The notes under the pieces: model-generated
Databases searched by the model: none
Told to the model about the DNA's origin: nothing
The model's input: the letters and a program-made list of their open reading frames with translations, nothing else
Shown here: one piece after another, positions 139 through 32,157 of the stretch
Layout of the letters: the number at the start of each line of letters is the position of its first letter
How positions within the stretch are numbered: position 1 is the stretch's first letter
Origin: a candidate division NPL-UPA2 bacterium Unc8
GTDB lineage: Bacteria; NPL-UPA2
NCBI GenBank assembly: GCA_003574845.1
Contig: NDHY01000008.1
Location: 1 to 35,933, forward strand
Reading direction: 5' to 3'
DNA: 35,933 bases
Translations under genes and position numbers: made by a program

Positions 139-182
139 TTTGTGCTCTTTGTGCCTCTGTGCCTTTGTGCCTTTGTGCCTTT
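139..182 (-). repeat. Octamer tandem tract (GGCACAAA on the sense strand) just after the nnr stop codon
   Basis: Plus strand reads tttgtgct-c-tttgtgcc-tctgtgcc-tttgtgcc-tttgtgcc. Confidence 0.9.
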
Positions 183-189
183 TTTACTA

Positions 190-1734
190 TTAGTCCATGG
201 CTAATTGTTGCATTGCTATGGGAAGATTGTCAATAATATCGGTGGCAATCAGAGAAGGCAGTCCTACTTTCTCTGCTGCTATATCCCCGGCTTTCCCATG
301 GATATATACTGCCGCCCGTGCCGCATCAATCCCCAGGAGTCCCTGCCCAATGAAGGAAGCAATCATTCCTGTCAGGATATCCCCTACCCCACCTGAAGCC
401 ATCCCCGGGTTTCCAGTAGAGTTAATCCAGACATCCCCTTGAGAGTTAGCGAGCACTGTTGCTGCTCCCTTAAGAACAACTACTGCCCCGGATTGTGAGG
501 CAATCTCCCGAGCGGTGCCAATGCGGTCTGACTGGACCTCCTCACTTCCCTTACCAATAAGTCTCCCGGCCTCTCCTGGATGAGGAGTTATAATAAGGGG
601 ACACCTGGCATTTTTAAGAAGTGAGAGGTCGCCATTAAGTAAATTCAACCCATCAGCATCAAGAACAACCGGTTTTTCAATTGCAACTAAAAGCTCCCGC
701 AATAATTCTCCGGTCTCTGAATTTGTTGAGAGCCCCGGCCCAAGAGCAACAGCATCTACCTTCTCCATCATCTGGAGAATTCTCCTCAATGCCCCAGGAC
801 TTAAAGAACCCTCTGTAGTTTCCGGGAGAGGCAAGGTCATAACCTCAGTAAGCTTGACTTCCATAATCGGATTTAAACTTTCAGGAATTCCAAGAGTAAC
901 CAATCCAGCGCCAGTGCGTATTGCCGCAATACTGCCTAACACCGCGGCTCCGCTAAGGCCGGTGGAACCCGCCAGAATAAAGACATGTCCATAATCACCT
1001 TTATGCGAATCTCCCCTCCTGCGAGGAAAAAGCAAAGAGATTTCACTATTAGTAAGAAGATTGATATTCAATCCTTTATCAGTGAGAAGTTCTGCGGGAA
1101 TGCCAATATCCACAATGGTAATTTCTCCCGCAAACTCCCTGCCTGGATATAAGAAAAGACCGAGCTTGGGCAGTCCAAATGTGACGGTCTGCCTGGCTTG
1201 CACACAAACTCCGAGAGGCTTGCCTGTATCCGCATCCAGACCAGATGGAACATCAACGGAGATAATTGGCTTCTGCGCTTCATTTAATAAGGTAATAGCC
1301 GCTGAAGTAAGCCCTTTGATATTGCCTTTCACTCCCGTGCCCAGGAGCGCATCAATCAAAAGGTCGACTTTAAGGATTTCATCTCTAAATTCTTTGAAAT
1401 CATCTTCGCTCCTAATCTCTCGCGGGGGTTCTTGCAATCTATCCAAATTTTCACGGGCAGCGCCTCTTACATCGCTCTTTTCTCCCAGGAGAAAAGTAAG
1501 AACTCGAAATCCCTCTTTTATAAGATAACGAGCAGCAACGAATCCATCTCCACCATTGTTTCCCCCTCCAGCAAGAACTACCACCATTTTGCCACCGCAA
1601 TCATTAAGCATACGAGAAGCAGCTACCGCCACGCTCTTTCCCGCATTTTCCATCAAAGAGAGGGTGGAAACTTTAAAGTCATCCATTGCGCGACGATCAA
1701 TCTTCCTCATTTCCACAGCGTTAACCAGCTTCAT
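190..1734 (-). CDS. nnr: Bifunctional NAD(P)H-hydrate epimerase/dehydratase (YjeF)
   Basis: N-terminal LMENAG, GGGNNGGDG, DALLGTG and DVPSG motifs; C-terminal SHKGDYG, GPGL, DADGL, ITPHPGEA, VLKG and GGVGDILTG motifs. Confidence 0.95.
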   Translation of the reverse strand: MKLVNAVEMRKIDRRAMDDFKVSTLSLMENAGKSVAVAASRMLNDCGGKMVVVLAGGGNNGGDGFVAARYLIKEGFRVLTFLLGEKSDVRGAARENLDRLQEPPREIRSEDDFKEFRDEILKVDLLIDALLGTGVKGNIKGLTSAAITLLNEAQKPIISVDVPSGLDADTGKPLGVCVQARQTVTFGLPKLGLFLYPGREFAGEITIVDIGIPAELLTDKGLNINLLTNSEISLLFPRRRGDSHKGDYGHVFILAGSTGLSGAAVLGSIAAIRTGAGLVTLGIPESLNPIMEVKLTEVMTLPLPETTEGSLSPGALRRILQMMEKVDAVALGPGLSTNSETGELLRELLVAIEKPVVLDADGLNLLNGDLSLLKNARCPLIITPHPGEAGRLIGKGSEEVQSDRIGTAREIASQSGAVVVLKGAATVLANSQGDVWINSTGNPGMASGGVGDILTGMIASFIGQGLLGIDAARAAVYIHGKAGDIAAEKVGLPSLIATDIIDNLPIAMQQLAMD

Positions 1735-2096
1735 TTTGTAGTTACCACCTGAGCAATAGCATAGGCTCCATCATGGGAGAGACTCAGGAATATTTTTTCC
1801 GCCTGCTGCTCCATAGCCACCCCTCTCACCCCGTCAGAAAGCTTAATTGACGGTTTTCCTCTCTCGTCATTAATTATTTCAATATTTTCCCACCCTACTC
1901 TCCTGCCAAGAGCTTTCATTGTTGCCTCTTTAGCAGCAAAGCGAGCAGCAAAATGAATAAATTCCATCTTCTGCCGACGGCAGTAATTTATTTCTCCCTG
2001 TGTATATACCCGGGAAATAAATCTCTCCTGCCATCTCTCAATGGCATTCTTAATTCTTCTTAATTGAATAATATCAACTCCTATTCCAGTAATCAA
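1731..2096 (-). CDS. acpS: Holo-[acyl-carrier-protein] synthase
   Basis: GIGVDI, ARFAAKEA and SLSHD motifs; TTG start; ATGA overlap with nnr. Confidence 0.95.
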   Translation of the reverse strand: MITGIGVDIIQLRRIKNAIERWQERFISRVYTQGEINYCRRQKMEFIHFAARFAAKEATMKALGRRVGWENIEIINDERGKPSIKLSDGVRGVAMEQQAEKIFLSLSHDGAYAIAQVVTTK

Positions 2097-2113
2097 CTTC
2101 TACCTCTTCCATC

Positions 2114-2136
2114 CGCGGGCTGAAGCCTGCGACTAC
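2114..2136 (-). repeat. Single GTAG-type REP copy overlapping the pdxJ stop codon
   Basis: Minus strand reads GTAGTCGCAGGC-TTCA-GCCCGCG, nearly identical to the copies at 29-76. Confidence 0.8.
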
Positions 2137-2849
2137 CAATTAATTAAATCAAGCATTTCACGCACTGCTCTATCCAGCCCAACCAGCACTGCCCGAGAGA
2201 TAATTGTATGCCCAATGTTAAGTTCTTCCAATCCTGGGATGGAGGCAATTTGTCCTACATTGTAATATGTAAGCCCATGCCCGGCATAAACATCAAGTCC
2301 GAGCTCTTTTGCTACCGCCACTCCCTTTCTTAATTTTTCCAATTCCTTTTCTCGCTGAATCACATTATTAAAATGCTTAGCATATTCTCCTGTATGTAAT
2401 TCTACGGCACTGGCGCCAACCCGAGCCGCAGCTTCAATTTGACGAGGATTAGTATTAATAAATAAGCTGACAGGTATCCCGCTCTCTTTCAGTTCTTCAG
2501 TAGCAGCTTTCAATGCCTCTTCTCCCGAGACAACATCTAATCCCCCTTCAGTAGTTATTTCCTCTCTTCGCTCAGGGACAATTGTTGCCTGGTCAGGCTT
2601 AACCTCCCTGGCAATTTTAATTATTTCTGCTGTAGCAGCCATCTCCAGATTGAGCTTTATCTTTACGACACCCCTCAAGATTTTCAGGTCACGGTCTTTG
2701 ATATGCCTTCTGTCCTCGCGCAAATGAACGACAATTCCATCCGCACCGGCAAGCTGACAGATAACCGCGCCGGCAACAGGGTCAGGCTCAAAAGTCCTTC
2801 GCGCCTCTCTAACCGTCGCAATGTGATCAATATTAACCCCTAACCTCAT
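2133..2849 (-). CDS. pdxJ: Pyridoxine 5'-phosphate synthase
   Basis: [31 protein letters not shown] and ELNIGH motifs. Confidence 0.97.
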
Positions 2850-2865
2850 TTTTTCTCCTCAACTA

Positions 2866-2900
2866 CCCAGAGTGCACCAGTCACCAATTTCCAATTTCAT
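2866..2900. repeat. Short member of the heptamer-mosaic intergenic family
   Basis: gcaccagtcaccaatttccaatttcatctct resembles both ends of the longer tract at 31839-31966. Confidence 0.6.
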
Positions 2901-2913
2901 CTCTCTCTTCTTA

Positions 2914-3759
2914 CTACTTACTTCCCATGATTGCATCTACTATGCCTGCCGCTCTTACTGTCTCCCCTACATCGTGCACTCTGACTATGTGAGCGCCATT
3001 TAAGATGGCACAAGTCATAGCCGCCAGGCTGGCCTCCAGGCGCTCTTCAACTGGAAGATTAAGAACATTGCCAATAAAACTTTTTCGCGAGAGACCAATG
3101 ACAAGCGGCTTTTCTAAAATAGCAAACTTTTCAAGATTTTTGATTATTTCCAGGTTATGGCTGGTTTTCTTTCCAAAGCCGATACCGGGGTCAATTAGAA
3201 GATTTTCTTCCCTGATACCGATTGCTTTTGCTTTCTTTATGGCTTCTTCAAAAAAACTGATAATTTCAGGGACAAGTGACCTGTAATAAGGATTCTCCTG
3301 CATATTTTTTGGGGTGCCCTGCATATGCATCAGGATGAGAGGAAGATTATACTCAGCCACGACCTCCCCCAAAGATAGGTCTCCACACAAGGCAGTTATA
3401 TCATTTACAAGCGATGCTCCTGCCTTAATGGCTTCACGAGCAACGATACTTTTAGAAGTATCCACAGAAATGGGGATATTTAGCTCTTGTGCCAGATGAG
3501 AGATTACAGGAATTATTCTTTTTACTTCCTCATCAGAGGAGATAGTTAGGGAACCCGGACGAGTAGACTCTCCGCCTACATCAATTATATCTGCCCCAGC
3601 CGCGGCAAGATAGCGGGCACGAGAAAGTGCGTCATCAGGAGTAAAGTGCTTTCCACCATCAAAAAAAGAATCGGGGGTAACATTTAGTATCCCCATAACT
3701 GCTGTTCTTTTTCCTAATCGCAGCCGATATTTGCCACAGTGGAGTTCAAACTCCTTCAT
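2914..3759 (-). CDS. folP: Dihydropteroate synthase
   Basis: MGILNVTPDSF, DVGGESTRPG, LMHMQG, DPGIGFGK, SRKSF and RVHDV motifs. Confidence 0.97.
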   Translation of the reverse strand: MKEFELHCGKYRLRLGKRTAVMGILNVTPDSFFDGGKHFTPDDALSRARYLAAAGADIIDVGGESTRPGSLTISSDEEVKRIIPVISHLAQELNIPISVDTSKSIVAREAIKAGASLVNDITALCGDLSLGEVVAEYNLPLILMHMQGTPKNMQENPYYRSLVPEIISFFEEAIKKAKAIGIREENLLIDPGIGFGKKTSHNLEIIKNLEKFAILEKPLVIGLSRKSFIGNVLNLPVEERLEASLAAMTCAILNGAHIVRVHDVGETVRAAGIVDAIMGSK

Positions 3760-3768
3760 TTTTAGGAA

Positions 3769-5676
3769 TCAGCGATTCTCTAATGCGGTATCCCTTTTAA
3801 TACCAACTATTTCCTGCACCTTATCCCCATCTAACACCTCATGCTCCTTCAGGGTAGCAGCAAGCTTATCTAATTTTTCCCGATTACTTTTAAGAAGAGT
3901 TTCTGCCCGATGATAGCACTTATCAATCAGAGAGCGCACCTCATTGTCTATATCCAGTGCAATCTTATCGCTGTAATGCTTGTCCCGCGTTATGTCTCTT
4001 CCTAAAAATAATTTATCTTCACTATCTCTGAAGGTCATAGGGCCAAGCTTTTCTGACATTCCAAACTCGCATACCATTTTTCTTATTGCTTTGGTAGCTA
4101 TCTCCAGATCATTCTGGGCTCCAGTCGTTGACTCATTAAATACAACCTGTTCGGCTACTCTCCCCCCTAAAAAGACGACTACGCGGCCAAGCAGCTCCTT
4201 CTTTGTCGTTAGATAGCGATCTTCTAAGGGAAACTGGAGTGTGTAGCCTAATGCTCGGCCTCCACGCGGGATGATAGATACCTTATGAAGCGGGTCAGCC
4301 TCTGAAATAAGCAGAGCCAGCAATGCATGCCCTGATTCATGATAGGCAACAATTGACTTCTCATAATCACTGATTATCCGGGATCTCCGCTCTGGCCCGG
4401 CAATCACCCTTTCTATTGCCTCCATAAACTCCTTTGCCCCTACTGCCTTCTTGTCTTTTCTTGCCGCCAGAAGCGCCGCTTCATTAGCAACGTTTGCCAT
4501 ATCTGCGCCAAAAAACCCAGGAGTCTTGCGAGCAATCAATTTAAGGTCAACACTTTTGCCAAGAATTATTCCTTTGGTGTGAACCTTAAGAATTTCTTCT
4601 CTGCCCCTGAGGTCTGGGCTATAAACCTCAACCTGGCGGTCAAATCTCCCTGGACGGAGAAGCGCTGCATCAAGAACATCCATCCGATTAGTAGCCGCAA
4701 TAACAATTACTGCTTCCTGGGTACTGAATCCATCCATCTCTGCCAATAGTTGATTTAATGTCTGTTCTCTTTCGTCATGACCGCCGCCAATTCCAGAGAA
4801 GCGTTGTCTTCCAACGGCATCAATCTCATCAATGAAAATAATAGATGGGGCATGTTTTCTTCCCTGCTCAAACACATCCCTGACCCGGGAAGCGCCAACC
4901 CCTACAAACATCTCTACAAAATCAGAGCCATTAACATTAAAGAAAGAAACATTTGCCTCTCCGGCAATTGCCTTGGCAAGAAGAGTTTTTCCGCAACCAG
5001 GAGGACCATACAGAAGTACTCCCTTCGGAATTTTCGCTCCTAATTTGCGATACCTCTCCGGCCACTTGAGAAACGAAACTATTTCCTGCAATTCCTCTTT
5101 TGATTCATCAATTCCGGCAACATCACTAAAGGTAACCTTTGGAATATCTTTATCAAGTAGCTTTGCTTTACTCTTTCCAAAAGCGATTGCTCCCTTGCTG
5201 CCAGCCTGCATATAACGTATAAACATTATCCAGAGAAAAACAATAAAGAGAACGGGAAGAAGGAAGTTGAATATAACCCGCCCCCAGGGACTGGCTGCTT
5301 TAAAAATGATGCCCATTCCCTTAGCTTCCATTGCTCTGATTAAATCCGGGTCTTCAAATGCAAGTGTAGTTCTGAAAGAATCGGTTGTGATAATCCGCCC
5401 AGTGCGAATATCATGAAGCTCCACTGCTTTATGAAGCCTGCCTGTTACCTCCATGCCTACGATAGTAACTTCTTTTATATTTGAATACTTTTCCAAATCA
5501 AGGGTTCCTAACTCCGCAATAAAGGCATCATAGGATATCTTTGCTATCGGTCTCTCGGCAAGATTCCTGGCAATGCTAAAGATAAAAAAGATTATTATTA
5601 CCACTCCACCTATCAGAAAAGGAATCAGATTCCTGGGTTTCCTGGGTGGCACAGTTTTTTCTTTTTCCAATTTCAT
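3769..5676 (-). CDS. ftsH: ATP-dependent zinc metalloprotease FtsH
   Basis: Two N-terminal TM segments, Walker A GPPGCGKT, Walker [21 protein letters not shown] and zinc motif HESGH. Confidence 0.97.
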
Positions 5677-5724
5677 TTTCCCCTCAAATCAACCAGTTGA
5701 AGTCTATCATATAGCAGGAAAAAA

Positions 5725-7143: not shown

Positions 7144-7168
7144 AACTTCCTACTAAAAAGAAAATGGA

Positions 7169-7308
7169 GCACCAGCCACCAGTTTCTAATTTCCAATTTC
7201 CAATTTCCAATTAATTTTCAATGACCCAATAAATGTCAGAAGTCAGAATTCAGGAGTCAGAATTCAGGAGTCAGAACTGTGAACTGTGAACTGTGAACCC
7301 TTGAACCC
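7169..7308. repeat. Composite heptamer-mosaic element (AATTTCC / core / AGTCAGA / CTGTGAA modules)
   Basis: Tandem heptamers are directly visible. Positions 7208-7248 equal the reverse complement of 24925-24965. Confidence 0.9.
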
Positions 7309-7406
7309 TTTGCTTGACTTTCGGTTAACTATTAAATTGGATGCTATCACAACTTTAGCTATTAGGCAAGCGACTAACGAGTGGTGAAGATCTCATGTGG
7401 TTTAGC

Positions 7407-7435
7407 TTGACAAATGATTAAGGAAGAAGTATAAT
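7407..7435 (+). promoter_or_regulatory. Consensus sigma70 promoter for the PAC2-pabB-pabC operon
   Basis: TTGACA (7407-7412), 17 bp spacer, TATAAT (7430-7435). Confidence 0.85.
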
Positions 7436-7525
7436 TTTAACCATAGCAGACTTAGTGGGCATAAATAGGTATAAAATGGCAAATGCACAAAGTTTGTGCC
7501 TTGTTAATTATAGGAGACTTACGAG

Positions 7526-8455: not shown

Positions 8456-9885
8456 ATGAGTTACCGCACGTTGCAATAGATGTCCCATCTGAACTTTCAC
8501 CAATTGAAGCCCTTGGAGTCTTTGCTTCCGAGCCAAACAGTTTCATCCTGAGCAGTGGGTTAAATACAGGCAGTGGATGGCAGTATTCTTTTGCTGGCAC
8601 TCGCCCTTTTCTTGTCTTTCGCAGCAAGGGGAAGGAAACAGAGGTTACCACTGACTCTCTCAAAAAGAAGATAGTTGGAAATCCATTTGACATCCTAAAG
8701 GAAATTTTAGCAAAGTATAAAGATGCTTCTGCATCACCTTTTCCTCTATTTCCAGGAGTAGCCGTCGGCTATTTCGGGTATGGACTCTCTTCTCACATTG
8801 AGGAGCTGCCAATAACAGCAGTCGATGACCTTGCTCTTCCTGATTGTTACCTCTGTTTTTATGACACAATTATTACCTTTGACCAACTCAACAGAAAGAT
8901 ACAGCTCTACTCATCCAGACTTTCGGGAGGAGAAACTATCTCTTCTGAAGAGGTAGGCGAAAAACTGCATCAGGCAAAAATCAGAGAAAGAAATATCCAC
9001 ACTTTTTCAAAGAAAGAGTCTCCTTCTATTATTTCAAACTTTCAGAAGGAGGATTATCTACAGGCAATAGTTAGAGCAAAAGATTACATTGACCGCAGTG
9101 ATATATATCAGATCAATCTCTCCCAGAGGTTAATGATGAAAGCGGGGATTCCTCCGTTTGAGCTTTACAGACGGCTGTGTATTTTAAACCCTTCTCCATT
9201 TGCTTCTTTCCTTAATTTTGAAGGGATATCGGTTGTCGGGTCCTCACCTGAGCGATTTCTGCGATTGAGAAATAGAGAAGTAGAAACCTCCCCGATGAAG
9301 GGAACAAGGCCACGAGGAGAAAGTGCTCGGGAAGATAAAAAGTTAGAGAAAGAGTTATTATCCAGCGAAAAGGAAAAAGCAGAGTTGATAATGATTGTTG
9401 ACTTAGAACGCAATGACCTGGGTAGAGTATGCGAGTACGGCTCCGTCAGAGTGAAGGAGTCAAGAAACATTGAAAAATATGCCACTGTCTTTCAAACAAC
9501 AGCTACGATAATAGGAACGTTAAGAGAAGATAAAGATGCCATTGACCTTCTCAGAGCATCATTTCCTGGTGGCTCAGTGACCGGAGTTCCTAAAGTAAGA
9601 GCAATGGAACTAATTGACGAGTTGGAGCCAACACAGAGGTCTGTGTACACTGGAGCAATTGGATACATAAGCTTCACTGGCGAGATTGATCTAAATATTG
9701 CTATCAGAACATTTTTAATCAAGAATGAGAGGGCATATTTTCAGGTGGGTGGCGGAATCGTTGCAGACTCTGAGCCAGAGGCAGAATACGAGGAAACGCT
9801 CACTAAGGCAAGAGCTCTCATTCAGGTATTAACAGAAGTGACAGAGGCACAAAGGCACAAAGGCACAAAGAAGCCTAAACTCTAA
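8452..9885 (+). CDS. pabB: Aminodeoxychorismate synthase component I (anthranilate synthase I family)
   Basis: YQINLSQR, SSPERF, PMKGT, MIVDLERND, FPGGSVTG and GGGIV motifs; TTG start overlapping the upstream stop; next to a pabC-like gene. Confidence 0.85.
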   Translation: MNELPHVAIDVPSELSPIEALGVFASEPNSFILSSGLNTGSGWQYSFAGTRPFLVFRSKGKETEVTTDSLKKKIVGNPFDILKEILAKYKDASASPFPLFPGVAVGYFGYGLSSHIEELPITAVDDLALPDCYLCFYDTIITFDQLNRKIQLYSSRLSGGETISSEEVGEKLHQAKIRERNIHTFSKKESPSIISNFQKEDYLQAIVRAKDYIDRSDIYQINLSQRLMMKAGIPPFELYRRLCILNPSPFASFLNFEGISVVGSSPERFLRLRNREVETSPMKGTRPRGESAREDKKLEKELLSSEKEKAELIMIVDLERNDLGRVCEYGSVRVKESRNIEKYATVFQTTATIIGTLREDKDAIDLLRASFPGGSVTGVPKVRAMELIDELEPTQRSVYTGAIGYISFTGEIDLNIAIRTFLIKNERAYFQVGGGIVADSEPEAEYEETLTKARALIQVLTEVTEAQRHKGTKKPKL

Positions 9886-10063
9886 ATACGAAACTCGAAA
9901 CAAACTCAAAACTCAAAATTACAATGCAAAATTCAAAATTAGAAATTGGAAATTAATTGAAAATTGGAAATTGAAAATTGGAAATTGGTAATTGGAAATT
10001 AGTAACCATTGACCATAGACCATTGATTAGTGACCATAGACCATTCACCATTCACCAGTTACC
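9841..10063 (+). repeat. Long mosaic of GGCACAAA, CAAAA(C/T)T, GGAAATT and GACCATA/CACCATT tandem units
   Basis: Successive 7-8 nt tandem modules, starting inside the 3' end of pabB. Confidence 0.9.
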
Positions 10064-10069
10064 AACAAA

Positions 10070-10113
10070 GTAGCGGTGCGACCCCGATTTGCATCGGGGC
10101 ATGCTTATCGCAC
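10070..10113 (+). repeat. Nested palindrome (GTAG-led outer stem with an inner CCCCGAT-TTGC-ATCGGGG hairpin)
   Basis: GTGCGA (10076-10081) pairs with TCGCAC (10108-10113); a perfect 7-bp inner stem lies at 10082-10099. Confidence 0.6.
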
Positions 10114-10123
10114 ATTGTTTCAG

Positions 10124-12715: not shown

Positions 12716-12817
12716 GGCGACTCTACCGTGGTGTTACTGGCAGTTCTTTATATTTGGTTGTCATTGTCAGGAGCGTTAGTGAGTCAAGTTATTTATATAA
12801 CACTACATTACACTTGC

Positions 12818-14989: not shown

Positions 14990-15091
14990 TGCTTTTATTC
15001 CTCTCAATATTGCAATTTGAGTAGCCTGGTGGTTATGCCTTCTTCCTCATTCAATCCTTGATCCTACTCTCGCTAAAAAACTGGAGCTCCG

Positions 15092-15424: not shown

Positions 15425-15523
15425 CCTTCTACCTCCTTTGGGTTCTAACCCCTCTAACCACAAATAACCACCAAACTACTCAGAGAAAGAAGACTCCTCA
15501 GCCTTTGGCCTAACTACCTGAGC

Positions 15524-15553
15524 ATGTTATCATTATTCTTTCAAATCTGTCAA
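15524..15553 (-). promoter_or_regulatory. Putative sigma70 promoter upstream of the SCP2 gene
   Basis: TTGACA (15553-15548), 18 bp spacer, TAACAT (15529-15524), with an extended -10 TG. Confidence 0.5.
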
Positions 15554-15556
15554 AAT

Positions 15557-16591: not shown

Positions 16592-16676
16592 CTAAACTCT
16601 AAATTCTCTGTGCCTTTGTGCCTTTGTGCCTTTCTCTTTACTCTCTACTTACCACTTACTACTTATTACCCACTCA
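16592..16676. repeat. Repeat mosaic in the etfB-etfA spacer
   Basis: Three TGTGCC octamers plus ACCACTT/TACTT units. Positions 16616-16649 are identical to 24296-24329. Confidence 0.85.
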
Positions 16677-16678
16677 TT

Positions 16679-17476
16679 TCAAATTATTCCATTTTCCTTC
16701 AATCTATTAAGGAGGGTATCAATCTGTCTGGAGATTGAGCCGGTTAGCATTTCCTTTTTTTTTCTGCCAAATTCAGGAGTAGATAATCCAACTACCCGGG
16801 TTGGGGAACCATCAAGACCAATCCGATTGCTATCCAGATTAAGAGCAGTTACTCCCCACTGAGGAATCTCTGCCCTTCTTGCTTTAAGCACCCCTCGCAT
16901 CCCTGGGCGGCGAGGCTTGTTTATCTCATCTGTTACTGTTAGAACAGCAGGGAGCGGCACCTCCATCACTTCAAAGAAATCTTCAAAGCTGCTTTCGGCT
17001 TTTACTGTATTGTCTTTAATTTCTATCTTTTGCGCACAGGTTATCTGGGGAAGCTCAAGCTGCTCAGCCAGCTGGGGACCAACCTGGGCTGTATCTCCAT
17101 CTATCGTATGTTTTCCCAGGAGAACAAGGTTAAACTCTCCAATTTTTTTAATTGCGGTAGATAAAACATAAGAAGTAGCCAGGGTATCAGAACCCGCCAG
17201 CGCCGGGTCAGTTATGAGAACTGCCTTATCAGCTCCCATAGCGAGAGCCCTTCTAAGTGCGCTCTCAGCCTGAGGAGGACCCATCGTAATGACAGTAACC
17301 TTGCCTCCGTGTCTTTCTCGCAGCCGCAGCGCCTCTTCAATGGCATTCTCATCAAGCGGATTGATAATTAAAGAAACAGCTTCATGCCTGAGTAGAGTCT
17401 TTGTTTTACTATCTACCCTTGCCTTACTTAGAGCATCGGGGCTGGGCACCTGCTTTACACAAACAACGATGTTCAC
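16679..17476 (-). CDS. etfB: Electron transfer flavoprotein subunit beta
   Basis: [34 protein letters not shown] and GLDGSPT motifs. Confidence 0.95.
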
Positions 17477-18615
17477 TCTTCTTTTAACAGGTAGCTGGCA
17501 ATGACATTACGTTGAATCTCAGAGGTTCCCTCAATAATCTCAAATAGCTTTGCCTCTCGCATATAACGTTCTACGGGGTATTCCTTTGTGTAACCATATC
17601 CGCCGTGAATCTGGACTGCTTTAGTCGTAACTCGCATACACATCTCACTGGCAAAAACCTTCCCCATAGCAGCAATTTTCTCAAATCCTTTTCCGCAGTC
17701 GCGCAGGAAGGCTGCTTTAAGAATCAAGAGGCGCGCCGCTTCTATTTCCATTGCCATATCGGCAAGCATAAACTGAACTGCCTGAAAATTGAAGATAGAT
17801 TTGCCAAACTGCACTCTTTCCCGGGCATACTTGAGCGCTGCCTTATATGCAGCCCGTGCCAGTCCAACTGCTTTGATTCCCATACCAATGCGACCGATGT
17901 CAAGAGTTTTTATTGCAACCCGAAATCCCTTTCCTTTTGAGAGGAGAACATTTTCCCGGGGAACACGACAATTCCTGAAGACCAGCTCACAATTAGCAAG
18001 TGCAGGATAAGCCATCAAGTCAAATTTCTGACCAAAGGTAAACCCTGGCATTCCCTTTTCTACAATGAAGGCAGTCAGCCCGCGGGGGTCTCCTCCTGAC
18101 CTGGTATTGGCAATAACGATATAGGTCTCTGCCACTCCGCCATTGGTAATGAAGCTCTTTGTCCCATTTAAGATATAACCATCGTTCTCAGGGGTAGCTG
18201 TCATCTGAATATTTCCAATGTCAGAGCCAGCCTGAGGTTCAGTCAAAGCAAAAGCTCCTAACACCTCTCCTTTAGCCAGTGGCGAAAGAAACTTGCGCTT
18301 TTGTTCTTCGGTTCCAAAGATAAGAATCGGATAAATGCAGAGCAGGTTTGCACCATAAATTGCTCCAGTTGTGGCACAAGCCTGTGATATCTCCCCATCC
18401 ACCAATGCCCAGGTAAGATAATTCATCCCCAACCCACCATATTTCTCAGGCACAGCAACTCCCATTAAATCGCTTTGAGAGAGGAGCTTAATATTTTCCC
18501 AGGGGAAATCTTTCTTTTCCTCAATTTCTGCTGCTCTGGGAGCAAGCTCTTTCTGACAAATTTCTCTTACTTCTTTAAGTACTGCTTCCTGATCTTCATT
18601 AAGGTCAAAATTCAT
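17473..18615 (-). CDS. Acyl-CoA dehydrogenase (butyryl-CoA dehydrogenase-like)
   Basis: [34 protein letters not shown] and EGTSEIQR (catalytic Glu present). Confidence 0.93.
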
Positions 18616-19871
18616 TTTTCTCCTCCAGACCTGTATTTCCTTGCTATCAATGACGCATTATGACCACCAAAGCCAAAAGAATTAGATATGCAGATATCTA
18701 TGTTCATCTGACGAGCCTGGTTAGGAACATAGTCAAGATTACATTCCGGGTCAGGATATTCATAGTTAATAGTTGGATGGACAACTCCCATTTCAATAGA
18801 AAGGACAGAAGCGATAAACTCTATGCCTCCGGAGGCTCCCAGGAGATGACCGGTCATAGATTTTGTTGAGCTAATGGCCAACTTACTGGAATGCTCTCCA
18901 AAGACACTCTTGATAGCAACCGTTTCAAGTTTATCGTTAAGTGGGGTTGAAGTTCCATGAGCATTAATGTAATCAACTTCCTCAGGCGTAAGACAGGCAT
19001 CGTTTAAAGCAGCCTTCATTGCCCTCGCAGCCCCTTCACCATCAGGGGCTGGAGCAGTTATATGATAAGCATCACTGCTCATTCCATAACCAACAACCTC
19101 AGCATAGATGTGTGCCCCACGCGAGTTAGCATGCTCTAAACTTTCTAAAATTAGTATCCCTGCCCCTTCTCCCATAACAAAGCCATCGCGTTCTTTGTCA
19201 AAAGGTCTACTTGCCCGCGCTGGCTCATCATTACGCGTAGAGAGCGCCCTCATTGCACAAAACCCGCCAAGTCCAATCGGTGTAATCGCCGCCTCGGAGC
19301 CACCGGTGATCATTACATCTGCCTCGCCGCGCTGAACAACCCGGTAAGAATCCCCGATAGAATGGGAACCTGAAGCACAGGCAGTAACTACACACGAGTT
19401 TGGTCCTTTCACACCTAATGTGATAGAGATTTGCCCGGATGCCGTGTCCGAGATAAACATCGGGATAAAGAAAGGAGAAATTTTCCTTGGCCCTTTTTCA
19501 AGAAGTAAGGAGTGCTGCACCTCAAACGTCCCCAAACCTCCAATTCCGGAACCAACCATAACCCCAATACGATTGGAATCCTCACTGCCAAGGTCAAGTC
19601 GAGCGTCAAGGACAGCATCAAGAGCAGCAACTACTGCAAACTGGGTAAAACGGTCCATCCGCCGTGACTCTTTTTTCCCCAACCTTTCTACAGGATCAAA
19701 GTTTTTAACCTCAGCGCTGATCTGACAGCTAAACTCGCGCGTATCAAACAGGGTAAGCTTCCCTACTCCACTTTTTCCCGCAATAAGAGATGACCAGAAA
19801 TCCTCCTTATTGTTTCCAAGCGGGGAGACTACTCCAATTCCGGTAACCATTACCCGCCTATTTTCTCTCAT
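18612..19871 (-). CDS. fabF: 3-oxoacyl-ACP synthase II
   Basis: TACASG (catalytic Cys), [19 protein letters not shown] and NSFGFGG motifs. Confidence 0.97.
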
Positions 19872-19894
19872 TTCCCTTCCTCTTCATACTATAT

Positions 19895-20170: not shown

Positions 20171-20195
20171 TTTTAATTTTCCTCCTTTTATACTA

Positions 20196-20933: not shown

Positions 20934-20972
20934 GATGACCCTCTACTATCTACTACCCACTCACTTTGAATT

Positions 20973-21173
20973 TCACTTTTTTGTTTTCTTTTTCTTTTCC
21001 TTAATTTCAATTACTTTTTTTTCTCCATAATATCCACAATGTGGGCAAGCACAATGAGAAGGGCGCAATTGCCCGCAGTGAGAGCACTTGGAAAGCGGAG
21101 GCGGGATTAATTTCCAGTGAGTTGCTCTTTTATCCCTTCTTGTCCGTGACCATTTTCTTTTAGGTACACCCAT
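20973..21173 (-). CDS. rpmF: 50S ribosomal protein L32 (zinc-ribbon form)
   Basis: MGVPKRKWSRTRRDKR and CSHC...HCACPHCGYY. Confidence 0.95.
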   Translation of the reverse strand: MGVPKRKWSRTRRDKRATHWKLIPPPLSKCSHCGQLRPSHCACPHCGYYGEKKVIEIKEKKKKTKK

Positions 21174-21188
21174 CTTTTTATTAGCGCA

Positions 21189-22228: not shown

Positions 22229-22262
22229 GTTTTCTTCTTGTGTCAGTGTGTCAGAGCGATTA

Positions 22263-22292
22263 CTTATAATTAAAGAATTGTAAACCTGTCAA
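22263..22292 (-). promoter_or_regulatory. Putative sigma70 promoter of the rsmD...fab...etf operon
   Basis: TTGACA (22292-22287), 18 bp spacer, TATAAG (22268-22263); AT-rich sequence upstream. Confidence 0.55.
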
Positions 22293-22329
22293 CAAATAAA
22301 ATTAAAACTCGTACAAAACATTCCTTACT

Positions 22330-24204: not shown

Positions 24205-24229
24205 ATACCCCTCAAGTCTAAACCCCTAA

Positions 24230-24337
24230 CAGCCTTCAGCCTTCAGCCTTCAGCCTTCAGAAACAATGTGCTAAATAGCTATCAGCTATCAGCTCTTGTG
24301 CCTTTGTGCCTTTCTCTTTACTCTCTACTCTCTCTCT
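24230..24337. repeat. Repeat mosaic overlapping the queH 3' end: (CAGCCTT)x4, CTATCAG units and TGTGCC octamers
   Basis: Directly visible. The queH stop codon lies inside the CAGCCTT run. Confidence 0.85.
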
Positions 24338-24838: not shown

Positions 24839-24856
24839 AAAATAGCTATTAACGAA

Positions 24857-24987
24857 GGTCAGGAGTCAGGGTTCAAATACAGTTCACAGTTCACAGTTCA
24901 CGGTTCTGACTTCTGGCTTCTGACTTCTGACTTCTGACATTTATTGGGTCATTGAAAATTAATTGAAAATTAGAAATTGAAAATTAG
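24857..24987. repeat. Inverted copy of the composite element at 7186-7308
   Basis: Same module order on the opposite strand, with a 41-bp exact match. Confidence 0.9.
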
Positions 24988-24993
24988 CTTTAA

Positions 24994-25105
24994 TTTGTGC
25001 CTCTGTTTCTCTGTTTCTCTGTTTCTCTGTTTCTCTGTTTCTCTGTTTCTCTGTTTCTCTGTTTCTCTGTTTCTCTGTGCCTTTGTGCCTTTGTGCCTTT
25101 GTGCC
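24994..25105 (-). repeat. 14 in-register octamers: TTTGTGCC, (TCTGTTTC)x9, TCTGTGCC, (TTTGTGCC)x3
   Basis: Counted directly; starts just after the serA stop codon. Confidence 0.95.
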
Positions 25106-25113
25106 TTTCTTCT

Positions 25114-27833: not shown

Positions 27834-27835
27834 AA

Positions 27836-28465
27836 TTACCTCTTTTTTATCTCTTTACTGATGATTTTATCAATCAGCCCGTATTCTTTTGCCTCTTCAG
27901 CAGACATGTAGAAATCGCGTTCGCAGTCTTCTTTGATTTTTTCTACTGACTGGCCAGTGTGATGAGCAAGAATCTCATTTAATTGGGCCTTCAGCCTTAA
28001 AATTTCCCTTGATTGAATCTCAATATCAGTTGCCTGACCTTCTGCCATCCCCATTGGCTGATGGATAAGGATGCGCGAATTAGCAAGAGACAGCCGTTTC
28101 CCCTTCGTTCCCGCCGCCAAAAGAAAGGTAGCGCCACTGGCAGCCTGGCCAACGCATATCGTTGAAACAGGAGGTTTGATGTACTGCATCGTATCATAGA
28201 TTGCCAACGTAGCAGTCACTGAGCCACCAGGACTATTAATATAAAGCTTAATATCTTTATTAGGGTCCTCGGACTCAAGGTAAAGAAGCTGAGCAATAAG
28301 AATATTAGCTTCCAAATCTGAAATAATGGATGACCCTGCCCGAATAACAGTCATTGAGCCGCCAAGAAAAATAATTCTTTCCTTAAGCAGCCTGTCAAAA
28401 AGGTCATAATGAACTCTTCCTCTCCCATCATCTTCTACTACCCCGGGCAATCTATTCAATTCCAT
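27836..28465 (-). CDS. clpP: ATP-dependent Clp protease proteolytic subunit
   Basis: [10 protein letters not shown] and YINSPGG; catalytic triad in GQAAS (Ser), IHQP (His) and ERDFYM (Asp). Confidence 0.93.
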
Positions 28466-28490
28466 CTTAATACCTCCTCATAATTATAGA

Positions 28491-28580
28491 GCACCAGTTT
28501 AAGAACTAATTCAAAAGTTAAAAGGCAAAAGTGCAAGTTAAAAGTTAAAAGTTTGTGCCTTTTCCTGAACCCTGAATTCT
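28491..28580. repeat. Repeat mosaic in the tig-clpP spacer
   Basis: GCACCAG, AAAAGTT heptamers, one TTTGTGCC and CCTGAA units. Confidence 0.7.
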
Positions 28581-28591
28581 GCTCCCTTTTA

Positions 28592-29932
28592 CTACTTACC
28601 ACCAACTAATTCAATTCCCTTTGCTCCCAAATTAGCTCCCTGCCTTTCAGATAAATCAAGTTGCTTTGCCTCCTCCGGAGTAAGAACTAAAGATTTTTCT
28701 TTTTCCTCAATTTTTGCATGGCTCATGATGAACTCTATTGTCTTCTGCCGCTGCAGTTGCCACTTGAGTTCATCCTCTTTTTCTTCACCAACTTCTTTAG
28801 CGCCTAATTTAACTCTGACCTGCTGCTGCTTTTTTACTTCCTCATCAGTTATGGTAATCTTTTCTCTGCGCGAGATTTCCTCAAGAACAAGCTTTCTTTT
28901 TAATTGATGAATCGCTGTCGGGCGGAGCTCAATCCGCATAGCCTCCTCCCCCTTATACTCCTCGTCAGTATCGCTCCTTGCCCTGGCATAGAGCAATAAA
29001 TGGTTAATCTGTTCTTCTATGAGACGCGGTGGGAGCTCAACCTCAGTCTGTTCCGCTATCAAATCAATCGCCATCTCACGCAGTTTTCTTTCTGCAATGA
29101 GTGAGGCCTGAAGAGTGAGTTCTTTGCGAAGATGACCACGCAATTCATCAAGGCTTGCAAAACCTCCAAGATCGCGAGCAAAGTTATCATCAACAACAAC
29201 CAGCCTTCTTTCTTTAATTCCTCTTACCAAAACCTTATAAGCGACTTCTCCACCATCTTTATGAGCTATTTCTACTTTGCTTTCCTCGCCAACCTTGCGC
29301 CCGATAAGACTTTTTTCCACCTCTTTGGGAAGACGGTTTTGCCCTAACTGGAACAGATATTCCTTCGCCTGCTGGTATGGAGAGTCATTAACAAAAGAGG
29401 TAATCTCAACAAGCAGCCAGTCACCCTCTTTTACCGGGCGATTCTCTACGGCAAGAAAATTGGCTTTTTCCTCCTGCTTCATCCTCAGAGCTGCTTCAAT
29501 ATCTTGCTCGGTAACTTCTACTTTTTCCTTCTTCAGCGTTATTCCCCTATAGTCAGGAAGTTTAATTTCTGACAATGCCTCTACTGTTGCTACAAAGAAA
29601 AATAATTTATTTTCCTCAGGAAGTTTATTATCCGCATCTATTTTAGGGTTAGATAAAGCAGTAATTTCCTTTTCTCTCAGCACCTCCCAGTAATGCTTAT
29701 TCACTATCTCCTTCATAACTTCTTCGGCAATAGTAGCGGCAAATCGGATTTTGAGAATATTTAAAGGAACTTTTCCCTGTCTGAAGCCGGGAATCTTTGC
29801 ATTGCGAAGAAATTTACGATAGACACCCTCAAAGCAACGGTTAACTTCCTCCGGAGGTACTTCAATTCGCAGTCGGCACTGAAAATCAGGCAACCTCTCT
29901 ACTTCTGACTTTACTCCGGTAGAATTATCCAT
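28592..29932 (-). CDS. tig: Trigger factor
   Basis: Ribosome-binding signature IPGFRQGKVP; DDNFA; lies upstream of clpP. Confidence 0.92.
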   Translation of the reverse strand: MDNSTGVKSEVERLPDFQCRLRIEVPPEEVNRCFEGVYRKFLRNAKIPGFRQGKVPLNILKIRFAATIAEEVMKEIVNKHYWEVLREKEITALSNPKIDADNKLPEENKLFFFVATVEALSEIKLPDYRGITLKKEKVEVTEQDIEAALRMKQEEKANFLAVENRPVKEGDWLLVEITSFVNDSPYQQAKEYLFQLGQNRLPKEVEKSLIGRKVGEESKVEIAHKDGGEVAYKVLVRGIKERRLVVVDDNFARDLGGFASLDELRGHLRKELTLQASLIAERKLREMAIDLIAEQTEVELPPRLIEEQINHLLLYARARSDTDEEYKGEEAMRIELRPTAIHQLKRKLVLEEISRREKITITDEEVKKQQQVRVKLGAKEVGEEKEDELKWQLQRQKTIEFIMSHAKIEEKEKSLVLTPEEAKQLDLSERQGANLGAKGIELVGGK

Positions 29933-29944
29933 TTAACTCCTTCT

Positions 29945-30820
29945 TTACTGTTTTTGAATGTAGCCCGGCGCTTTAAGATGTCTGAACAAGTAGGTCTCAG
30001 AGCTAAATATCAGGGTGGTATCCCCTGCAAGAAACTCCTCGTATGCCCTTAGTGTTCGTACAAAGCTGAAGAACTCAGGATGCTCATTAAAGGCATCTGC
30101 ATAAATAGCCGCAGCTTTTGCATCGCCTTCACCTTTTAATATCCGGCTTTCCTTCTCAGCCTCAGCCAGGATAATAGTCACCTCTCTATCTGCACCTGCC
30201 CTGAGTTTCATTGCCTCTTGTTCTCCTTTAGCACGATGTTCCTTAGATATCCGGTTACGCTCTGCTATCATTCGCGAAAAAACAGCTGCCTGCACCTCTT
30301 CGGGAAGGTCAACTCTTTTCATTCTGACATCTATTATCTCTATCCCGAACTCACGACGAGCAAGCTCATCCACATGCCTACCCACTACTTCCATAATTGG
30401 CTTTCTCCGAACACCGATTATATCCCATAGATTGTGCCGGGCAAGTTCTTCTCTCAGCCTGGAGGTAACAATACCATCTATTCTAAGTTTGGCTCCATGC
30501 TCATTTCTTACTGCTTTAAAGAACAGGTGTGGGTCAAGGATTCGCCAGCGGGTGTAACTGTCCACCACCAGCCTTTCCTTGTCAAGAGTAAGAAACTCAG
30601 CCGGGCGCACATCGAAAAACAGCGTTCTCGTTTCCATACGGTGCACCACCTGAATAAAAGGGATTTTAAAGTGCAGCCCCGGTTTGTCTATCGTCCCCTT
30701 GTACTCCCCTAACTGCAAAACAATCGCCTGTTCCGTTTCATTTATTGCAAACATCGCCTGGCTGCCAACAATCACAACGACCAGCAACAAAATCGCAACT
30801 ACCCATACTTTAGTACTCAT
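29945..30820 (-). CDS. hflC: Protease modulator HflC (SPFH)
   Basis: N-terminal TM, PGLHFKIPF, RMIAER and PEFFSFVRTLRAY motifs. Confidence 0.93.
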   Translation of the reverse strand: MSTKVWVVAILLLVVVIVGSQAMFAINETEQAIVLQLGEYKGTIDKPGLHFKIPFIQVVHRMETRTLFFDVRPAEFLTLDKERLVVDSYTRWRILDPHLFFKAVRNEHGAKLRIDGIVTSRLREELARHNLWDIIGVRRKPIMEVVGRHVDELARREFGIEIIDVRMKRVDLPEEVQAAVFSRMIAERNRISKEHRAKGEQEAMKLRAGADREVTIILAEAEKESRILKGEGDAKAAAIYADAFNEHPEFFSFVRTLRAYEEFLAGDTTLIFSSETYLFRHLKAPGYIQKQ

Positions 30821-30834
30821 TTGCCCACCCCCTT

Positions 30835-31821
30835 TTATTCAATATCGGTTAAAGGTAAGAACTGTAATATGTTACCACCGACCTCGGGGTCAATGATGAA
30901 TTTTTTGCTTTCAGTTAGGACCCTCTCTATTGTCTCCAGATATAGTCTTTCCCGGGTTACTCCTGGCGCCCTCTGGTATTCTTTGAGAAGTTGGAGGAAT
31001 CGGGCCGCATCACCTTCAGCCAACGCCACTCTTTCCTCCCTGTAGGCAGTAGCTGCCTGTGTTATCTTTGATGCCTTTCCTCTTGCCCTGGGAACCACAT
31101 CCAGAGCATATCCTTCCGCTTCCCGAATCAACCTTTCCTCGTCTGCCTTGGCGCGCACTACATCATGAAACGACTCTTTTACTTCATCGGGTGGGTCTAC
31201 CACCTGTAGCTCCACCAGGACTACATGTAATCCGGTTTGGTGGTCATCTAACAACCGCTGCAGAAAGCTCCAGACTCCCGCTTCAATCTCAGGCCGACCC
31301 TCGGTCATAGCATGATCAATATCCATATTGCCAATAATACTTCTGAGGGCAACTTCAGTATTTACCCGAAGCGCGATTTCAGGCTCTCTGGCCCGGAAAA
31401 GATATTTTACAGGGTCTACTACCTGATACTGAATTAGAATTTGCACACCAGCGATGTTCCTATCCCCGGTAAGCATCATTTCTTCTTCTAACACCCGATG
31501 GATTTTTGGCTCTCTTCCCGGGCGTTCTACCGTTCTAAAGCCGACCTCAGCCCTTCTTATTCCCGCAATGTTAACCACATTGTGTGATTCAATAGGACGA
31601 GGCAAGCGGTAGCGGAGACCCGGACCTGTCTGAGCAGTGAACCTTCCAAATCGTCTTACAATACCCGCTTCGCCGGGTCCAACAGTGTATATTCCCGATA
31701 AAAGCCAGATGACCACCACAATTGGAATAGCAATTTTAAGTAACCCAAGTATTCCTTTTGCAGACTCTAACATCTGCTTGAGTTCCTTCCCGAAATCCTC
31801 ACTACCATATCCATTAGACAT
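30835..31821 (-). CDS. hflK: Protease modulator HflK (SPFH)
   Basis: MLTGDRN, VDPPDEV and APGVTRERLYLET motifs. ATG at 31821 is preferred because the GAGGAGG site nearly abuts the ATG at 31827. Confidence 0.93.
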   Translation of the reverse strand: MSNGYGSEDFGKELKQMLESAKGILGLLKIAIPIVVVIWLLSGIYTVGPGEAGIVRRFGRFTAQTGPGLRYRLPRPIESHNVVNIAGIRRAEVGFRTVERPGREPKIHRVLEEEMMLTGDRNIAGVQILIQYQVVDPVKYLFRAREPEIALRVNTEVALRSIIGNMDIDHAMTEGRPEIEAGVWSFLQRLLDDHQTGLHVVLVELQVVDPPDEVKESFHDVVRAKADEERLIREAEGYALDVVPRARGKASKITQAATAYREERVALAEGDAARFLQLLKEYQRAPGVTRERLYLETIERVLTESKKFIIDPEVGGNILQFLPLTDIE

Positions 31822-31838
31822 TTTCATCCCTCCTCAAT

Positions 31839-32033
31839 GCACCAGAGCACCAGTTACTAATTTCCAATTTCCAATTTCCAGTTACTAATTTCCAATTTCT
31901 AATTTCTAATTTTCAATTAATTTTCAATGACCCAATTACCAATTTCCAATTTCTATTTTCATCTCTTACCACTTACCACTTACCACTTTTACCACCTCCT
32001 ACTTACTACCCACCACCTACCACTTACTACCCA
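31839..32033. repeat. Repeat mosaic between tRNA-Gly and hflK (GCACCAG, AATTTCC, 23-bp core, ACCACTT units)
   Basis: Positions 31914-31936 are identical to 7208-7230. Confidence 0.9.
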
Positions 32034-32036
32034 AGA

Positions 32037-32108
32037 AGCGGGTGGTGGGAGTTGAACCCACGACATCTACCTTGGCAAGGTAGCGCTCTACCGCTGAGCT
32101 ACACCCGC
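32037..32108 (-). tRNA. tRNA-Gly(GCC)
   Basis: GCGGGTG acceptor, anticodon arm CTACC-TTGCCAA-GGTAG and GGTTCAACTCC T-arm; CCA not encoded. Confidence 0.96.
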
Positions 32109-32123
32109 AATGCCCCTATTTCA

Positions 32124-32157
32124 TTCTGACTCCTGAATTCTGACTTCTGGCTCCTGA
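32124..32157. repeat. AGTCAGA/TCAGGAG module in the tRNA-Leu/tRNA-Gly spacer
   Basis: Positions 32124-32149 are the exact reverse complement of 7237-7262. Confidence 0.85.

Follow-up and report, generated by a model that had tools for sequence, protein, structure and literature searches.

The window analysed here is a stretch of 35,933 nucleotides (nt), positions 1 to 35,933 of contig NDHY01000008.1 from candidate division NPL-UPA2 bacterium Unc8 (assembly GCA_003574845.1). Its content is housekeeping: the genes encode FtsH, TilS, a PabB-like protein, FabG-ACP-FabF, acyl-CoA dehydrogenase with electron transfer flavoprotein (ETF), CoaD, RsmD, MnmG, QueH, SerA, ClpP, trigger factor and HflKC, and three tRNAs are the only matches to Rfam at the gathering threshold. 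Many of the spacers between these genes contain tandem arrays of 7-8-nt units, and it is the organization and possible origin of these arrays that we describe. The window genome (G000; 996 kb, 94.67% complete) was compared with a numbered collection in which its phylum is represented by 13 species genomes, with G001 as the sister species. The closest MnmG relatives of G000 are uncultured non-cyanobacterial metagenome-assembled genomes of at most 67% identity, and the host belongs to a small uncultured phylum and is not a cyanobacterium.

A first-pass annotation of the window described ten spacers as built from short tandem repeats, and Tandem Repeats Finder (TRF) reports period-7 or period-8 arrays in 10/10 of them (Table 1). 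In the spacer after serA the TRF arrays cover 24879-25108. Across the window, arrays take up 855 of the 2975 intergenic bases and 128 of the 32958 coding bases, the coding and intergenic classes being separated throughout by a crude longest-ORF (open reading frame) mask that makes such figures approximate. Genome-wide, the corresponding values are 11190 of 101026 (11.1%) and 3444 of 895189 (0.385%). TRF returned 1022 rows for the whole genome, 398 of them with period 7 and 126 with period 8, against 16 and 30 rows, respectively, in a Markov-1 shuffled genome. The preference for these periods is also seen in exact runs of at least 2.5 copies: there are 166 with period 7 and 46 with period 8, compared with 25 at period 5, 26 at period 6 and 0-1 at periods 9-11. 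Measured against either coding DNA or shuffled sequence the enrichment is strong. The further claim that most longer spacers are filled in this way holds within the window, where 9/15 spacers of at least 30 nt carry arrays and 6/15 do not; for the genome as a whole, a strict exact-run criterion finds an array in 75/281 codirectional spacers of that length. Short-read assemblies under-represent arrays.

The arrays draw on a common vocabulary. All eight units named by the annotation recur on other contigs, the canonical units being found as exact runs with counts of 22 (AAAGGCAC), 10 (AAATTGG), 10 (AAAAGTT), 8 (AAGTGGT), 7 (AAGGCTG), 4 (AACTGTG), 3 (ACCATAG) and 2 (AAGTCAG). The 166 heptamer runs come from just 66 canonical units, the four commonest with counts of 13, 10, 10 and 8, and the octamer runs are mainly GGCACAAA (22) and GGCACAGA (10). 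Repetition extends beyond the units themselves: 14-mers that occur at least six times cover 12142 of 101026 intergenic bases (12.0%) against 2400 of 895189 coding bases (0.27%), and they assemble into linkers, 30-94 nt long, by which specific arrays are tied together. When 66 spacers are viewed in compressed form, identical chains of arrays recur, and the 55 GGCACARA arrays continue into one or another of a few recurring sequences, with copy numbers that vary by locus. Within the window, the module [CCAATTT]n-TTAATTTTCAATGACCCAATAAATG-[GTCAGAA]n-[GAACTGT]n is present at 7179-7310 and as an inverted copy at 24857-24990, and the linker at 9841-10064 is found again elsewhere. The spacers hold modules in which fixed linkers join 7-8-nt arrays, and these belong to the short tandemly repeated repetitive (STRR) or heptanucleotide-repeat kind.

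Table 1. Arrays, array-free spacers and the fabF junction in the window. Subscript-like numbers after brackets are copy numbers.
Positions	Strand	Location	Content	Method
139..182	-		GGCACARA octamer array, 5.4 copies	TRF
2884..2898	-	dihydropteroate synthase / pdxJ gap	AAATTGG heptamer, 2.1 copies	TRF
7179..7310	+	divergent tilS / PAC2-like gene spacer	composite module: [CCAATTT]4.9, fixed linker TTAATTTTCAATGACCCAATAAATG, [GTCAGAA]6, [GAACTGT]3.6, (TGAACCCT)2.1	
9841..10064	+		(GGCACAAA)3.8, linker (GAAGCCTAAACTCTAAATAC...), [AAACTCN], [AAATTGG]9.7, [ACCATTG]7.6	
16609..16665	-	ETF beta / ETF alpha operon junction	[AAGTGGT/GGTAAGT]2.7 then (GGCACAAA)3.1	
18612..18615	-	fabF / acyl-CoA dehydrogenase junction	4-nt overlap, rnc missing	
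24230..24337	-	queH / mnmG gap	[AAGGCTG]4.4, [GATAGCT]2.6, (GGCACAAA)2.2, [TAGAGAG]3.6	
24857..25108	-	in sense order, beginning after the serA stop	(GGCACAAA)4.1, (AAACAGAG)9.8, AT-rich linker module, [GTCAGAA]5, [GAACTGT]4	
28513..28553	-	tig / clpP gap	[AACTTTT]6 module	
31850..32033	-	fills tRNA-Gly / hflK gap	[GGAAATT]13.9 + [AAGTGGT]8.7	
32123..32149	-	tRNA-Leu / tRNA-Gly gap	[TCAGAAT]3.9	
2097-2132, 5677-5724, 12716-12817, 15008-15091, 15464-15556, 20934-21188			array-free spacers	

The orientation of each unit follows the strand of the flanking genes. In codirectional spacers a leave-one-out assignment of unit orientation agrees with the flanking gene strand in 62 cases and disagrees in 3, a ratio that overstates the number of independent events because the arrays in one module are linked. 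Set against contig strand, the same assignment scores 32 to 23 (10 ties); the score is 49 to 10 for the strand of most genes in the locality and 46 to 11 for the sign of the GC skew. Arrays beside genes that oppose the local majority follow the gene in 8/8 cases, which come from only four spacers. The octamer illustrates the switch: downstream of the PabB-like gene, which is on the plus strand, GGCACAAA reads in that direction too (9841-9870), and the whole composite to 10064 is in sense with the local plus-strand genes; at 139-182, 16609-16633 and 25076-25108 it follows minus-strand genes and reads on the minus strand. Genome-wide, GGCACARA arrays in codirectional spacers are sense in 22 cases and antisense in 1, and those within crude ORFs are on the ORF strand in 13/13. 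They also have a preferred position, starting 4-14 nt past the upstream stop codon in 15/31 cases; the window example at 139-182 starts 7 nt past the stop of a gene for NAD(P)H-hydrate epimerase/dehydratase (190..1734, minus strand).

The sense strand tends to be the purine-rich one, by 86 arrays to 26 and by 37 distinct units to 13. The pyrimidine-rich unit AACTTTT is nevertheless sense in 9 cases and antisense in 0, so that purine loading alone does not set orientation. Avoidance of start or stop codons, judged by eye for the commonest units, was rejected as a cause: in sense, AAATTGG contains TTG, AAGTGGT contains GTG and AACTTTT contains TAA.

The arrays are not terminators. The first-pass annotation had recognised no classic intrinsic terminators at these sites, and none of 41 terminator-like hits (stem plus T-run) falls inside a repeat tract. 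The lone hit in a listed spacer, at 7485-7499, is beyond the interval 7169-7308 that the annotation had assigned to the repeats there. It is a minimal inverted pair of octamer units (GCACAAAGTTTGTGC) located 27 nt upstream of a start codon (7526); as a pair of single units it stands outside the GGCACARA pairing counts given below, which cover tandem arrays only. Folding of the sense RNA of six window spacers gave z-scores of -0.32, +1.38, +0.18, +1.15, +1.07 and +1.69, the value of +1.69 belonging to the 7179-7310 module and that of +1.38 to 16609-16665. Across the genome, spacer folding revealed no general structural signal (median sense z of -1.29 in array-rich and -0.60 in array-poor spacers); z falls below -2 in 10/36 spacers of each set, owing to a few hairpin-type modules.

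Comparison with the sister species gives a view of how spacers change. Filled and empty sites were catalogued over 20 of the 330 G001 contigs, with 110 kb aligned at 86.8% identity. Among 43 collinear junctions, 34 measure 60-1090 nt in G001 and at most 40 nt in G000, three show the opposite pattern, and the other six have long or intermediate lengths in both species. At least 13 of the 34 G001 inserts have mirrored 7-8-nt arrays when inspected by eye, the rest being small inverted-repeat elements or genes. Between the aminotransferase gene and clpP, for example, mirrored GTTCNNN/TGAACNN arrays occupy about 95 nt in G001, where the G000 junction is 24 nt long. In the neighbouring clpP / tig spacer it is G000 that is longer, by about 90 nt, and its [AACTTTT] module is not in the orthologous G001 spacer. 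The queH|serA and pabB|pabC spacers are filled in both species with different arrays, between flanking genes that are 87-93% identical. Empty and filled alleles, the comparison for which the annotation had looked to related genomes, are both found. The 34/43 filled and empty junctions, together with the different arrays at sites filled in both species, indicate that insertion, loss and replacement turn spacer content over at a higher rate than that at which the genes diverge. At a greater distance, 80 MnmG loci yielded 8 short period-7 or period-8 runs and no orthologous spacers.

The G001 inserts also include other small elements. Several have inverted ends of the GAGGTCTCTGAAAAA type, and several 60-nt CAGGCTGTCACAAAAC elements are bordered by short direct repeats. 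One insert of 1.09 kb (L282:3075-4166) contains small genes between mirrored heptamer arrays.

Elsewhere in the phylum, where relatives were sampled at 130-356 kb each, array density varies. The numbers of runs per 10 kb at periods 7 and 8 are 1.67 and 0.46 in G000, 0.72 and 0.57 in G004 (317 kb) and 0.63 and 0.07 in G002 (270 kb), and the samples of G003, G008 and G010 are near background. Unit vocabularies are largely genome-specific, with the exception of GGCACARA. Three copies of this octamer, with at most one mismatch, occur in 5/13 genomes of the phylum and in 10/288 genomes outside it, and a reversed control pattern occurs in 0/301. In the relatives these arrays often begin 4-8 nt past a stop codon, and they form inverted pairs around a loop of 36-60 nt in 13/19 cases in G004, 5/7 in G002 and 2/4 in G008. 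The roughly 45-nt loop of the GGCACARA hairpins of G002, G004 and G001 has only chance matches of at most 16 nt in G000.

Some of the paired arrays enclose a gene. We identified 23S_rRNA_IVP (IVP) genes, which encode a four-helix-bundle protein, by matches to PF05635; within the phylum there are 6 in G001 (two with stops), 5 in G002 and 2 in G008, and 0 in the other ten genomes. Four of five GGCACARA-bearing genomes outside the phylum have them as well (G069, G099, G106 and G179). We examined 23 IVP loci and found a 7-8-nt tandem array upstream in 18 and downstream in 18. In 13/23 loci a 12-mer of the 5' array is mirrored in the 3' flank, against 0/65 control placements at the same loci, of which 17 had an array upstream and 16 downstream. 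Two cassettes, G001:C47 and G069:C92b, have the form [GGCACARA]n-T-ATG...IVP...[TYTGTGCC]n, with the same unit as the window; the gene of the former is decaying, and G069 belongs to another phylum. Besides this IVP gene with GGCACARA arms, G069 has 47 hits to the GGCACARA triple. The G008:C30 gene has flanks that resemble AGGCTGT/CAGCCTT by eye.

The cassette at G001:C18 spans 502 nt and consists of a gene for a 120-residue 23S_rRNA_IVP protein (Pfam 6.7e-19) between GGTAATT and AATTACC arms; like GGCACARA, GGTAATT is a unit also present in the window. In its RNA the arms pair around the gene (z -4.30, with 0/100 shuffles as good), and gene-less GGCACARA hairpins of G001 reach z of -5.81 and -2.82. 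The three G001 cassettes with synteny to G000 (C18, C39 and C47) have the orientation of the host genes, and the corresponding G000 sites are empty. At C1:42559 of G000, two GGCACARA units are followed by GTATGATAAAAACATA and then a stop, and GTATGATAAAAACATA corresponds to the start of the IVP gene at G001:C47, from the junction through the fourth codon; from this match we take it to be a trace of an IVP gene. In the literature, as far as the accessible parts of the sources extend, heptamer-armed IVP cassettes between protein genes are not described; the one related case is an intervening sequence (IVS) of 23S rRNA whose S23p ORF is preceded by strain-variable heptamers and in which RNase III cuts at the first repeat (PMC4990558).

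On balance, and with some reservation, we favour the reading that the G000 arrays are gene-less, mostly one-armed remnants of hairpin cassettes that have been resized by slippage. In the phylum and in scattered genomes of other phyla, such arrays are the two complementary arms of these cassettes, which lie in operons between genes in sense orientation, often enclose a 23S_rRNA_IVP gene and are gained and lost among close relatives. G000 would have lost every IVP gene and retained the arm that is purine-rich on the transcript, just past the upstream stop codon. Copy number would then drift through replication slippage, whole modules would be exchanged or replaced among loci, and the arrays would ride passively on operon transcripts, not as terminators. 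The annotation had offered flanks left after the loss of small cargo genes as one of its explanations and had named four-helix-bundle, 23S-IVP-like genes among the candidates. The mirrored IVP cassettes of the relatives, with arrays beside the genes, and the empty G000 sites lend this explanation real support in the lineage; in G000 itself no such gene flanked by units was found, no IVP gene or remnant emerged from the searches described next, and the arrays are unpaired.

Several observations weigh against a cassette origin. The G000 genome has no PF05635 match, and tblastn searches of it with 10 IVP proteins gave only chance hits in coding DNA. An inverted unit lies within 130 nt of 1/55 GGCACARA arrays in G000, and the six window spacers fold no better than shuffles and have no inverted ends. 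No orthologous site pairs a relative's cassette with a solo arm in G000, the three sites examined being empty. Arm units are found in the G000 vocabulary in 9/60 cases against about 5.6% expected per heptamer, which is a modest excess. The linkage of arrays within modules dilutes the orientation statistic, as noted above, and descent from paired cassettes would require a one-sided loss of the 3' arm.

The main rival, to which we give a minor though real share of our belief and which may operate alongside a cassette origin, is that, however the arrays arose, selection acts on them where they lie, for a role at the RNA level in operon transcripts. They might serve as unstructured, purine-rich and C-poor spacers or as protein-binding tracts that, for example, avoid Rho loading on untranslated RNA or hold ribosomes after termination. 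Much of what is described above would be expected on such an account, including the 62 to 3 agreement with transcription, the purine-rich sense strand (86 arrays versus 26), the placement of GGCACARA 4-14 nt past stops in 15/31 cases and the fact that 4/6 of the folded window spacers are less structured than most shuffles. Rho is present in G000, and the heptamers of Xanthomonas and Nostoc likewise occur on the sense strand within 50 bp of stops and are transcribed, according to the part of PMC4692102 available to us. Selection in place fits less well with the turnover of spacers, in that content differs at orthologous G001 spacers, 34/43 junctions function with at most 40 nt in G000 against 60-1090 nt in G001, and 6/15 window spacers are array-free. 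The 9 to 0 sense bias of the pyrimidine-rich AACTTTT also argues against purine loading as the only determinant of orientation.

Movement of the modules as non-autonomous elements by Y1/HUH transposases, in the manner of repetitive extragenic palindromic (REP) sequences with REP-associated tyrosine transposases (RAYTs) or of IS200/IS605, seems to us improbable. Such systems act on single strands, and strand-specific insertion would be expected from them. G000 has six Y1_Tnp matches (in 1 Mb; C1, C12, C18 and C20) and G001 has seven, these being the two most repeat-laden genomes; the Y1 gene at C1:8999-9274 adjoins a piece of the roughly 90-nt hairpin element found at window 1-138; and one of the G001 inserts lies between two copies of a 9-nt direct repeat, ACCTCTTTT. 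No consistent target duplication is seen at the other inserts, though, and all six G000 Y1 genes are bracketed by short terminal inverted repeats of their own and not by arrays. Y1_Tnp correlates only weakly with GGCACARA across the 13 genomes (5/5 of those with the arrays and 4/8 of those without), and gene strand (62 to 3) predicts orientation better than the proxies for replication direction (49 to 10 and 46 to 11). That each array was born in place, by slippage acting on a chance seed and without any exchange among loci, is very improbable. An excess of period 7 is general in long bacterial simple repeats and has been linked to a polymerase footprint (PMC4692102, in the accessible part, citing earlier work), and copy numbers do differ among loci; yet the vocabulary and the 30-94-nt linkers are common to many loci, each unit has a fixed orientation, and GGCACARA occurs in 5/13 genomes of the phylum and 10/288 outside it against 0/301 for the reversed control. 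The shared linkers contradict slippage as a complete account, and it could survive only as the resizing step. The annotation had also raised a templated-synthesis system that writes units at gene boundaries. Writing by a reverse transcriptase or other templated polymerase would suit short head-to-tail units that abut stop codons, but we found no RVT_1 (PF00078) match in the 94.67%-complete genome with a search that matched 3/14 control genomes, the Y1/HUH genes are not array-flanked, and dozens of units would need dozens of templates; we consider this idea hardly tenable. Assembly artefact deserves next to no credence: G001 contigs break at arrays, but the same units, orientations and positions recur across 24 contigs, four further genomes of the phylum show them as well, and several public DNA and RNA runs contain 0.82-0.93 of sampled words from an 8.4-kb stretch with five arrays.

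If the arrays do descend from hairpin cassettes, the state of RNase III in G000 may be relevant. RNase III is the enzyme that excises rRNA intervening sequences. No RNase III domain was found in G000 by TIGR02191, PF14622 or PF00636, even at E <=1, and TIGR02191 is matched in 10/12 other genomes of the phylum. G002 encodes a 242-residue RNase III with a double-stranded-RNA-binding domain between fabF and an acyl-CoA dehydrogenase gene. The G000 orthologues of these two neighbours, at 18612..19871 (fabF, 72.5% identity) and 17473..18615 (acyl-CoA dehydrogenase, 71%), adjoin directly; with a 4-nt overlap between these syntenic genes, the missing RNase III is not due to an assembly gap. G001 aligns gap-free across the same junction, so that rnc is missing there too. 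The sole RNase III match of G001 is a 145-residue domain protein without the binding domain on contig C329, which has no G000 counterpart and, from a reading of translated frames, lies beside an MNT/HEPN-like pair. One could imagine that the genus lost canonical RNase III and that, with no enzyme left to excise cassette stems from operon transcripts, the paired arms became a liability that was resolved to single, sense, unstructured arrays, and that the IVP genes died out. This proposal is based on one genome, and we regard it as doubtful. If true, heptamer-armed IVP cassettes would be messenger-level intervening sequences dependent on RNase III, and the STRR-type repeats of cyanobacteria, xanthomonads and sulfur bacteria would be debris of IVP cassettes.

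The nearest known repeats are the intergenic heptamers of Calothrix and Nostoc (STRR), with GGGAATC in Xanthomonas and GGGGAYT in Nostoc, which like the G000 arrays are head-to-tail 7-nt repeats and strongly intergenic. The first-pass annotation had compared the window with cyanobacterial STRR, and the comparison is apt as to kind, although the host is not a cyanobacterium. In Xanthomonas and Nostoc, length and sequence vary among close relatives, as they do here, and comparable strand and stop-codon preferences are described in the available sections of PMC4692102; these preferences place the G000 repeats in a known kind. The differences are that the G000 host has a genome of about 1 Mb and comes from an uncultured non-cyanobacterial phylum, that it has dozens of units where STRR have one to three, with octamers as well and with chains held together by fixed linkers, and that the arrays, unlike the heptamer repeats listed, are not G-quadruplex formers.

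A second parallel is the TAACTGA repeat of marine Beggiatoaceae, some cyanobacteria and Bacteroidetes, a single unit found across distant phyla like GGCACARA. It too is mostly intergenic with a fixed 'forward' orientation to the neighbouring gene, and between strains it shows insertions and deletions in unit steps (MacGregor 2015; PMC4679880). TAACTGA lies just upstream of start codons and has stops in all frames, whereas GGCACARA lies just past stops and, by our reading of its sequence, is open in all frames; the portion of that report accessible to us describes no cassette or gene link for TAACTGA. The cassettes of the relatives most resemble the ORF-bearing IVS of 23S rRNA (S23p), in which a protein of the family is encoded in a stem loop with terminal inverted repeats and the ORF decays while the RNA element persists, as far as the accessible part of the source goes (PMC4990558). 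A build of this type is seen in G001, G002, G008 and G069, although their cassettes lie between protein genes and not in rRNA. The window arrays differ from S23p IVS in having neither an ORF nor a second arm, and RNase III, which excises such IVS, is missing from G000. REP sequences of enterobacteria, with the bacterial interspersed mosaic elements (BIMEs) that they form, and the small dispersed repeats of Nostoc are likewise short intergenic motifs in regular order, mostly within or after operons, and some occur inside others or inside heptamer repeats. A REP unit is a palindrome that forms a hairpin and is associated with RAYT transposases; the window modules, by contrast, are tandem, unstructured and strand-specific, and the Y1 genes are not flanked by them.

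Catalogues of intergenic heptamers from cyanobacteria, xanthomonads and giant sulfur bacteria go back decades and give no origin or mechanism, and the role of the heptamer and TAACTGA repeats is still called open in the sections available (PMC4692102, PMC4679880). The present lineage offers a test bed of about 1 Mb in which gene-bearing cassettes, gene-less hairpins and solo arrays stand side by side, one octamer arm is common to several phyla and RNase III is naturally knocked out. It makes the origin of such repeats testable, together with the role of the 23S_rRNA_IVP protein family. There are practical consequences too, as arrays break short-read assemblies and add repeat-encoded tails to proteins such as QueH.

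In the window, the QueH frame continues through three arrays (24257-24337), giving a tail of 25-27 residues; of its 193 residues, the match to the Pfam QueH domain extends as far as residue 168, and the G001 orthologue stops five codons past the conserved end. The final 15 codons of the PabB/TrpE-like ORF similarly come from the GGCACAAA array and linker (9841-9885). GGCACARA has no stop in any frame, and would extend a protein wherever an array lands on a stop codon.

The window also contains dispersed elements that adjoin arrays. The array at 139-182 abuts an element of about 90 nt at the contig end (1-138; GGTAGCCGCAACCTTTAGGTTGCG...GCAGGCTGAAGCCTGCGGCTACC) that forms nested hairpins and whose 14-mers occur 16 times in the genome, counting both strands. 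A 42-nt element at 10066-10107 with a CCCCGAT/ATCGGGG hairpin (AGTAGCGGTGCGACCCCGATTTGCATCGGGGCATGC...) ends several array chains; its 14-mers occur 13 times, counting both strands, and in the window it overlaps the called GTG of a class-IV aminotransferase ORF. A perfect promoter-like site, TTGACA-17-TATAAT, is found at 7407-7435, ahead of the inverted octamer pair at 7485-7499. Among the tRNA genes, tRNA-Leu(TAG) and tRNA-Lys(CTT) directly abut with zero spacer (32186-32346), and an array separates tRNA-Gly from tRNA-Leu.

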